Source: an uncultured archaeon (GTDB taxonomy: Archaea > Asgardarchaeota > Thorarchaeia > Thorarchaeales > Thorarchaeaceae). From it: DNA of 32,000 bases. The stretch is from NCBI GenBank assembly GCA_964648855.1, contig CAZYLT010000004.1:109532-141531 (forward strand). Reading direction: 5' to 3'. Under the pieces are notes generated by a model. The model saw only the letters and a list, made by a program, of their open reading frames with translations, was not told where the DNA came from and did not search any database. Position numbers and translations under genes: made by a program. Position 1 is the stretch's first letter. Each line of letters opens with the position of its first letter. Positions 20,979 to 30,866 of this stretch are shown piece by piece.

Positions 20979-21066
20979 GCCGAGGTAGCCAAGCCTGGAT
21001 TAAGGCGCTGGTCTTGAAAACCAGTGTCCGCTGGACTCATGAGTTCGAATCTCATCCTCGGCGCCA
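20979..21066 (+). tRNA. tRNA-Ser (anticodon UGA), intron-less, CCA encoded
   Basis: Acceptor GCCGAGG/CCTCGGC; anticodon arm CTGGT-CTTGAAA-ACCAG; long variable arm; T-arm ATGAG-TTCGAAT-CTCAT; G73 then CCA. Confidence 0.97.
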
Positions 21067-29127: not shown

Positions 29128-29315
29128 AGTTGCAGTTCTATCAGGGTTCTCTTATTACTTTCGTGAATCTGGATGGCGAGGGGTTGACTTTGTGCCGCCT
29201 AATCACGGAATACGAAAAGACTGAACAGTTCAAGCAGATGATTTGGGAGCTTGAAGAGAAAGAAGTGAGAAAATTAGATTGGTATTACTGATATGACTCG
29301 GTTATATCGAAAATG

Positions 29316-29543
29316 TGGTGGGGTGGAGGAGATATATTCCGTATCTAGGTAGTCTAGATAGGCTTGAACTCCTGACCGATACTCAAATTTGAGTAGATAC
29401 TCAAACTTTACGAGTGTCACCTAGACGACGGCCAGTTTTTGACCCCGCGTGTCAGGACTCGAAGAGAGCCCAGATCTGGAGCCCGTCGCCATCCCGTTCC
29501 AGGCGACTAGGGAAATCCTAGCAGCTGACTAGGCCACCACCCC
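29316..29543 (-). tRNA. tRNA-Trp (CCA) with four predicted introns, CCA end encoded
   Basis: Exons 29543-29527, 29496-29476, 29415-29410, 29378-29364 and 29333-29316 join to GGGGTGG TG GCCT AGTCCGGGA TGGC G ACGGG CTCCAGA CTCGT CGGTC AGGAG TTCAAAT CTCCT CCACCCC A CCA, a 77-nt cloverleaf. Junctions form BHB-type motifs. Confidence 0.85.
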
Positions 29544-29687
29544 ATTGGGTGTAGCAGGGCATGCCGGTTTGCGATATGAACCTTTCGCCAGCACAGCTTC
29601 AAAATGAGATTTTCTTGCAACATTGCTTCTATCGCAAGTATATTTTATGCAAAAGTACAATGTTTGGTGTATTAAAGAAGAGGACGC

Positions 29688-30623: not shown

Positions 30624-30649
30624 ACATCAAATCGAATTTCTCATTCTTG

Positions 30650-30766
30650 ATGGCGGCCATAGCACATGGGTCTTACCTGATCCCATTCTGAACTCAGAAG
30701 TCAAGCCCATGAGCGTTGAGGGAGATGTGCGGTGCGCGAGCCCGTGACAGGCCCTCAAGCTGCCAC
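30650..30766 (+). rRNA. rrf: 5S rRNA (stand-alone)
   Basis: TGGCGGCCATAGC...CCTGATCCCATTCTGAACTCAGAAGTCAAGC...GCTGCCA; terminal helix TGGCGGC/GCTGCCA; followed by a T-tract. Ends are approximate. Confidence 0.93.
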
Positions 30767-30866
30767 TTTTTCCAGTTTTACCATTACTCCTCAATTTTGT
30801 TGCTCTCTCTGCAGGAACCCAATGTACTAACAGAAACGATTAAGTGATAACTTTCAGCAGTCCGCA

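Follow-up and report, generated by a model that had tools for sequence, protein, structure and literature searches.

Transfer RNA genes interrupted by several introns have been described from Asgard archaea and from the Thermoproteales. The tRNA-Trp(CCA) gene of Atabeyarchaeia-2 is 231 nt long and was annotated with three introns by tRNAscan-SE and with four upon R2DT inspection (Valentin-Alvarado et al. 2024; PMC11291895, Supplementary Data 4). Up to five intervening sequences per gene were reported for the Freyr-, Jordi-, and Atabeyarchaeaceae in a preprint whose main text does not name the Thorarchaeia; the same study found that tRNAscan-SE misses 30% of introns, mostly in the D arm (Goswami et al. 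preprint, October 2026, 10.64898/2026.10.13.758758). For the Thermoproteales, the literature as far as covered by one review (PMC4090602) records no more than three BHB introns per tRNA gene, many of them at non-canonical positions (Sugahara et al. 2007, 2008; Fujishima et al. 2010). In euryarchaeal pre-tRNA-Trp, Cm34 and Um39 are directed by a box C/D guide that the canonical intron itself encodes (Clouet d'Orval et al. 2001, PMC92551; Singh et al. 2004; both cited in the same review).

The locus described here lies in a 32,000-nt stretch of DNA (hereafter, the window) from a metagenome-assembled genome (G000), and coordinates refer to the window unless a contig is named. On the minus strand, from 29543 to 29316, we found a tRNA-Trp(CCA) gene whose five exons are split by four introns. 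We consider it very probable that this is a functional gene, probably the sole tRNA-Trp(CCA) gene of this Candidatus Thorarchaeota archaeon, and that it is spliced by EndA and RtcB. A preliminary description of the locus had given three introns as the known maximum for multi-intron tRNAs, naming the Thermoproteales; this premise holds for the Thermoproteales record only, since a four-intron Asgard tRNA-Trp has been tabulated and genes with five introns appear in the preprint. The gene layout was already described for Asgard archaea between 2024 and 2026, and the gene in the window is a clear, well-supported further case.

As in the published Asgard genes, the host is an Asgard archaeon and the gene carries at least two introns, which are short BHB introns at non-canonical sites in the D arm, anticodon arm, and T arm and are partly invisible to annotation; an (alpha-beta)2 EndA is a shared background. 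The present gene comes from a different class (Thorarchaeia), and it was missed as a whole by ARAGORN and Rfam, whereas in the published cases tRNAscan-SE left one intron in the 'mature' tRNA. Its junctions lie at 17/17a, 37/38, 43/44, and 58/59, and one exon is only 6 nt long. It resembles the Thermoproteales genes in its relaxed hBH and HBh' motifs and in an alpha2-beta2 EndA with the Crenarchaea-specific loop. However, it belongs to a different phylum, has one more intron, and gives no sign of intron copying between tRNA genes: a search of G000 for second copies of any tRNA-Trp intron retrieved none, the matches being the locus itself, the 3' end of a tRNA-Pro, and 17 nt of upstream sequence. 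The general picture of archaeal tRNA intron function is unchanged by this locus.

The 228-nt precursor is made up of exons of 17, 21, 6, 15, and 18 nt (77 nt in total) and introns of 30, 60, 31, and 30 nt. In the order of transcription, the features are:

29573 to 29587, minus strand: promoter-like element CGAAAGGTTCATATC (BRE/TATA-like), a putative promoter that ends 30 nt before the start of the tRNA
29527 to 29543, minus strand: exon 1 (17 nt), with the acceptor 5' strand, U8, the D stem 5' strand, and the D-loop to C17
29497 to 29526, minus strand: intron 1 (30 nt, D-loop, 17/17a), HBh'-type BHB
29476 to 29496, minus strand: exon 2 (21 nt), with the remaining D-loop (G18 G19), the D stem 3' strand, the anticodon stem 5' strand, CCA, and G37
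29416 to 29475, minus strand: intron 2 (60 nt, canonical 37/38), relaxed hBH; it contains a 5' ATCT (29475 to 29472), a hairpin, the tag GGGGTCA (29446 to 29440), and the block CCGTCGTC
29410 to 29415, minus strand: exon 3 (6 nt, ACTCGT, A38 to U43), the anticodon stem 3' strand
29379 to 29409, minus strand: intron 3 (31 nt, 43/44), strict HBh'
29364 to 29378, minus strand: exon 4 (15 nt), with the variable loop, the T stem 5' strand, and the T-loop to A58
29334 to 29363, minus strand: intron 4 (30 nt, T-loop, 58/59), hBHBh'
29316 to 29333, minus strand: exon 5 (18 nt), with the T-loop end, the T stem 3' strand, the acceptor 3' strand, A73, and the encoded CCA (29318 to 29316)
29310 to 29313, minus strand: TTTT run 3 nt past CCA, a likely transcription stop

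The coordinates, lengths, and motifs given in the preliminary description were all present in the sequence upon re-reading and recomputation of the BHB motifs, and its prediction of a canonical tRNA-Trp(CCA) agrees with ARAGORN, which called the spliced 77-mer tRNA-Trp(cca). In the spliced product, the acceptor stem has 7 perfect bp, the anticodon and T stems have 5 bp each, and the D stem has 3 bp with a U13-U22 mismatch. Conserved positions (U8, A14, G18 G19, A21, U33, G53 T54 T55 C56, A58, and C61), a G15:C48 pair, and the discriminator A73 are all present, and the anticodon CCA lies together with U33 in a loop of 7 nt. Archaeal and eukaryal TrpRS recognize an identity set of the A73 discriminator and G1:C72. 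The spliced sequence contains these features together with CCA and U33, and G1:C72 was found in 18 of 18 orthologues. The flanks are also shared among relatives: CGAAAGGTTCATATC or close variants precede most orthologous tRNA-Trp genes at variable distances, and T-rich trailers lie 3' of many of them. A genome-encoded CCA is found in all credible tRNA genes of the host genome.

If the gene is expressed as we propose, the BRE/TATA-like promoter would give a precursor transcript of at least 228 nt, from which the (alpha-beta)2 EndA would excise the four introns by cutting after the second base of each 3-nt bulge. The BHB motifs would be built from both exon and intron sequence, and RtcB would join the five exons into a 77-nt tRNA already bearing CCA.

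We recomputed the motifs with the published BHB geometry, in which the central helix joins the 4 exon bases preceding the 5' bulge to the 4 intron bases preceding the 3' bulge and the cuts fall after the second bulge base on each side. In introns 1, 3, and 4 the motifs are strict: all central pairs form (4/4), and the inner helix measures 8-10 bp. Intron 1 has a central helix CTAG/CTGG, bulges TC|A and AA|C, and an inner helix of 8 bp with 1 mismatch; intron 3 has ACTC/GAGT, bulges GT|A and AT|C, an inner helix of 10 bp, and two copies of TTTGAGTAT; and intron 4 has GTTC/GAAT, bulges AA|G and AT|A, an inner helix of 8 bp with 1 mismatch, and an outer helix of 3 bp. The motif of intron 2 is relaxed: its central helix CTCC/GGTG forms 3/4 pairs (U33 is unpaired), its bulges are AG|A and AC|A, its 5-bp outer helix is the anticodon stem, and its inner helix is almost absent, a pattern common to all 18 orthologues. 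Among 300,000 random 29-31-nt junctions sampled from the same genome, 4/4 central pairs with an inner helix of at least 8 bp occurred by chance at a rate of 2.7e-5 per junction.

Exon 3 coincides exactly with the 4-nt strand of the intron-3 central helix plus two bulge bases. A gene with only three introns would dispense with this micro-exon by treating introns 2 and 3 and the 6 nt between them as one intron of about 90 nt, with ATCTGG supplying the anticodon stem 3' strand. A spliced aligner favoured this arrangement under a heavy intron penalty, and ARAGORN accepted its 78-nt product as tRNA-Trp. However, the merged intron would leave no more than 2/4 central pairs and no flanking helices at its junction, even when shifted by -3 to +3, and an A27-G43 mismatch with two G-U pairs in the anticodon stem, where ACTCGT pairs 5/5. 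Intron 3 by itself is a perfect BHB. Furthermore, ACTCGT is identical in 17 of 18 orthologues (ACTCAT in L010), including those in which it is joined to the next exon, and the same micro-exon stands between unrelated intron-3 sequences in the congener G001, in L003, and in L005. On the grounds of the missing motif at nearby junctions, the poor anticodon stem, and the micro-exons of the orthologues, we rejected the three-intron gene as extremely unlikely. In the four-intron gene, the mature tRNA would read CCAGACUCGUCGG across positions 34-46.

The 228-nt precursor folds at -90.7 kcal/mol (z = -3.68), and none of 200 shuffled sequences folded as well; in the minimum-energy structure, the acceptor stem, the T stem, and the hairpins of the introns are all formed. 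The central helix of intron 3 takes up nucleotides 38-41, and the outer helix of the canonical motif takes up nucleotides 39-43. Because nucleotides 39-41 are needed by both, the motifs of introns 2 and 3 are mutually exclusive, which suggests that these introns would be removed stepwise, most likely intron 3 ahead of intron 2. The CCGTCGTC block in intron 2 (29424-29431, minus strand) is complementary to exon nucleotides G23-G30 (GGCGACGG; 29483-29490, minus strand), and its counterpart in relatives is CCGTCGYC or GACGTCGCC. This pairing appears in the minimum-energy fold, where it excludes the anticodon stem and BHB, and its role may be to open up the anticodon arm ahead of splicing.

The unspliced locus was seen neither by ARAGORN with introns allowed nor by the Rfam tRNA model, even with E up to 10. 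The expectation that standard scanners would miss the gene thus holds for ARAGORN and the Rfam tRNA model, the scanners that were run. The sole nearby Rfam match, to sR4 at E = 4, was dismissed as meaningless. As an independent route to the exon structure, we used a motif-free spliced alignment of the whole genome, on both strands and with introns of 10-130 nt, in which the query was the mature tRNA-Trp of a gene from another genus (L014) that has the canonical intron only and scores 49 bits with Rfam. The best match ends at G000:C4:138847, which is position 29316 of the window. With a score of 102, it was the single such match genome-wide; a reversed-genome decoy reached at most 43 and other tRNA genes at most 58. 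Single-intron orthologues, which are 64-72/77 identical to the spliced 77-mer, scored 46-52 bits with the Rfam tRNA model (cut-off 29), and the two- and four-intron orthologues tested fell below its threshold.

The genome-wide spliced scan, the ARAGORN list, and the Rfam list contained no second tRNA-Trp, compact or interrupted, in the assembly, which is 94.56% complete; this was a check that the preliminary description had asked for. The locus supplies the otherwise missing tRNA-Trp of the genome. Because a whole Thorarchaeota tRNA gene can vanish from ARAGORN and Rfam output, the incomplete tRNA sets of Asgard metagenome-assembled genomes are likely to be annotation gaps in part, which bears out the earlier suggestion that such genes could account for 'missing' tRNAs. 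Kaneta et al. (2018) have also taken the incomplete predicted tRNA sets of Asgard archaea as pointing to unidentified disrupted genes.

With about 5% of the genome unassembled, the locus could in principle be a decaying or silent copy that is left unprocessed while a working tRNA-Trp gene lies in the missing part. We consider this very unlikely. The exons are intact and show tRNA-type selection with compensatory pairs across genera, all four splice motifs are intact, and the promoter-like element is conserved. In the relatives searched, the best match was an orthologue beside the 5S rRNA gene and no compact second copy was found, and a genome of a different genus (G007) independently retains four introns.

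Some further observations concern tRNA annotation in this genome. A partial census for other hidden multi-intron genes, with ten isoacceptor queries, found no gene above about 140 nt apart from tRNA-Trp. A tRNA-Leu(CAA) gene with at least two introns (C19, near 16707, minus strand) is in neither the ARAGORN nor the Rfam output. ARAGORN also mislabelled several interrupted genes (G000:C4:65885-66379, C11:35454-35560, C11:6841-6978, and C6:46563-46679): its 'Pyl(cta)' and one of its 'SeC(tca)' calls are a tRNA-Glu(CUC) and a tRNA-Val(CAC), respectively, each interrupted in the D arm, 'Cys(gca)' at C11:6841 resembles tRNA-Val, and 'Thr(ggt)' at C6 resembles tRNA-Ser. The sole tRNA reported in the window by ARAGORN or Rfam is a tRNA-Ser(TGA) without intron (20979-21066, plus strand). 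A 5S rRNA gene (30649-30768, plus strand, 65 bits) lies 1.1 kb from tRNA-Trp, and this linkage is also found at L011, L019, and L020.

We searched 40 related genomes with DNA and then by spliced alignment and obtained 18 complete orthologues, all from the same family. Their introns are distributed as follows, the gene of the window (four introns) being given above:

One intron, 37/38 only: L008, L009, L010, L014, L017, L018, L019, L020
Two introns, 17/17a and 37/38: L011, L012, L015
Two introns, 37/38 and 43/44: L003
Two introns, 37/38 and T-loop: L013, L016
Three introns, 17/17a, 37/38, and near 44-46: L004, L006
Four introns, 17/17a, 37/38, 43/44, and 59/60: L005 (G007, a different genus)

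Each of the 18 splices to a 77-nt product that is called tRNA-Trp by ARAGORN and is 64-72/77 identical to that of the window. When the products are set on one shared cloverleaf, pairing is kept in 354 of 360 stem cells, and double-sided (compensatory) changes are seen at 8 of the 20 stem pairs. Exon 1 is identical or nearly so throughout. The canonical intron is present in all 18 complete orthologues and is 77-92% identical across genera, and the other introns come and go. The intron 1 junction is occupied in L002, L004, L005, L006, L011, L012, and L015 and empty in ten others; where the intron is present, its inner stem varies between genera and the exon-pairing CTRG is retained. The 6-nt micro-exon is also found in L003 and L005, measures 7 nt in L004 and L006, and is joined to the next exon where intron 3 is absent. 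T-loop introns occur at 58/59 in L016, 59/60 in L005, and 56/57 in L013, are absent elsewhere, and have unrelated sequences in different genera.

A comparison of intron presence in relatives had been suggested earlier, and it revealed the same introns present or absent at the predicted junctions. Because the inserts are present or absent at exactly these junctions and the exons are under tRNA-type selection, the inserts behave as introns. The spread of one to four introns over shared junctions points to fast intron turnover, and it makes the orthologues a compact natural series for studying EndA substrate range and splicing order. Gain or loss also occurred within one genus (g7), in which L005 (G007:C82) has four introns and L010 (G022:C120) has one.

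In the congener G001 (L002, G001:C8), introns 1-3 are present before the contig ends. Compared with the window, exons 1-3 are the same and identity reaches 83% in intron 1 and 92% in intron 2, but the sequence of intron 3 matches at only 14/31 positions despite having the same junction and the same 31-nt length. Between these congeners, intron 3 has been replaced or has diverged very fast. The congener also bears on whether the inserts could come from a chimeric contig or foreign DNA. The genome is metagenome-assembled with an estimated contamination of 4.75%, which would leave room for an assembly or binning artefact. However, the G001 assembly is independent and shares exons 1-3 and introns 1-2, the same junctions recur in independent assemblies of other genera, the 5S rRNA linkage is conserved, and the inserts have precise BHB geometry. 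We regard an artefact as hardly credible.

The genome encodes two EndA paralogues, both with PF02778 and PF01974, and an RtcB ligase (E 2e-179). The first paralogue (EndA alpha, 187 aa; L021:1474-2037, minus strand) is closest to the catalytic alpha subunit of Aeropyrum pernix (3p1z_B, E 3e-49). The alignment is free of gaps through the Crenarchaea-specific specificity loop (IRKPKEPVFDKPL versus VEKPRGADFEGPL), where K42 and K44 align to A. pernix K44 and R46, and the segment KDHAPFLVHV also aligns to the A. pernix catalytic subunit. Mutagenesis has tied A. pernix K44 to the cleavage of non-canonical introns (Hirata et al. 2011, PMC3241643). The second paralogue (211 aa) has a non-His residue at the position of the catalytic His, as would be expected for a structural beta subunit. 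The arrangement resembles the A. pernix alpha2-beta2 enzyme (PDB 3P1Z, 3AJV) in the end-to-end alignment of alpha, the loop lysine, and the catalytically dead partner; it differs in that the Thorarchaeota beta-like subunit begins with an additional acidic stretch of about 35 aa at its N terminus. An (alpha-beta)2 EndA with this L1 loop is known in Asgard archaea, including a Thorarchaeote (Kaneta et al. 2018). The preliminary description had deduced a broad-specificity splicing endonuclease, and the two-subunit EndA in this genome, with its loop lysine, appears to be of that type. The stop codon of the gene for the beta-like subunit (L022:1174-1809, plus strand) shares one base with the start of the next gene (L022:1809-3086, plus strand), which encodes a 425-aa P-loop ATPase.

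The canonical intron is unusually conserved. Whether long or short, this intron starts with ATCT and contains GGGTCA (mostly GGGGTCA) in 18 of 18 orthologues, and the hairpin between these two elements shows compensatory changes. We rejected an intron-encoded box C/D guide of the Haloferax/Pyrococcus type, as the 60-nt intron has no RUGAUGA (C box) and a single CTGA. The hairpin 3' strand beside this CTGA varies between genera and its complementarity to the exons is not kept, which also argues against a cis guide.

We found a separate box C/D sRNA at G000:C4:73621-73691 (plus strand; L030:222-291), 65 kb from tRNA-Trp and just downstream of tRNA-Gly(CCC). It consists of a C box, an 11-nt guide ending in ATGACCCCA, CTGA, a C' box, a 12-nt guide (GGATCTTGAGTT), and CTGA, and its score is below Rfam thresholds. 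Both guides are invariant in 14 of 14 copies found, from this genome and 13 relatives of the family. The D guide (GGAUCUUGAGUU) can pair with G30-G37 of pre-tRNA-Trp and the intron AUCU through 8 Watson-Crick and 3 G-U pairs with one C35-U mismatch, and C34 then faces the fifth base upstream of box D (the N+5 position). The D' guide pairs with the intron tag GGGGUCA over 7 bp. By itself, the fit of the D guide is not significant genome-wide, since at least 10 pairs, of which at least 8 are Watson-Crick, are also reached by 5188 12-mers that have a C where the target lies. The fit carries weight only when the fixed register and the tag are considered with it. Neither guide varies among the 14 copies, which leaves no covariation with the intron tag to be seen within the family. 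A search for a dedicated guide RNA fully complementary to GCUCCAGAUCU gave no candidate in a C/D context.

These complementarities lead us to propose, tentatively, that the canonical intron is kept because a box C/D sRNA acting in trans docks on it, rather than being merely tolerated, and that it would assist methylation to Cm34. We rate this as possible but somewhat doubtful. If docking occurs, Cm34 would have to form before intron 2 leaves, and together with the overlap between the motifs of introns 2 and 3 this would impose a fixed maturation order on the five-exon tRNA. It would also be a trans version of the cis-guiding euryarchaeal tRNA-Trp intron. The two systems are alike in a long conserved canonical intron, in an apparent tie to C34 2'-O-methylation (here a putative link), and in folds competent for methylation and for splicing that are mutually exclusive. 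Unlike the euryarchaeal intron, the present one is without a C box, has one CTGA, and is complementary to both arms of a separate sRNA. Docking here would extend to tRNA-Trp the idea, raised for tRNA-Leu and tRNA-Met, that a guide for Cm34 docks on a tag in the intron.

A GGGGTCAT tag in the tRNA-Leu and tRNA-Met introns of this genome had earlier been proposed to pair with a guide RNA. On its two strands together, the genome contains 315 copies of GGGGTCA, and four of them are in tRNA genes, those for Leu(UAA), Met, Gly(GCC), and Trp.
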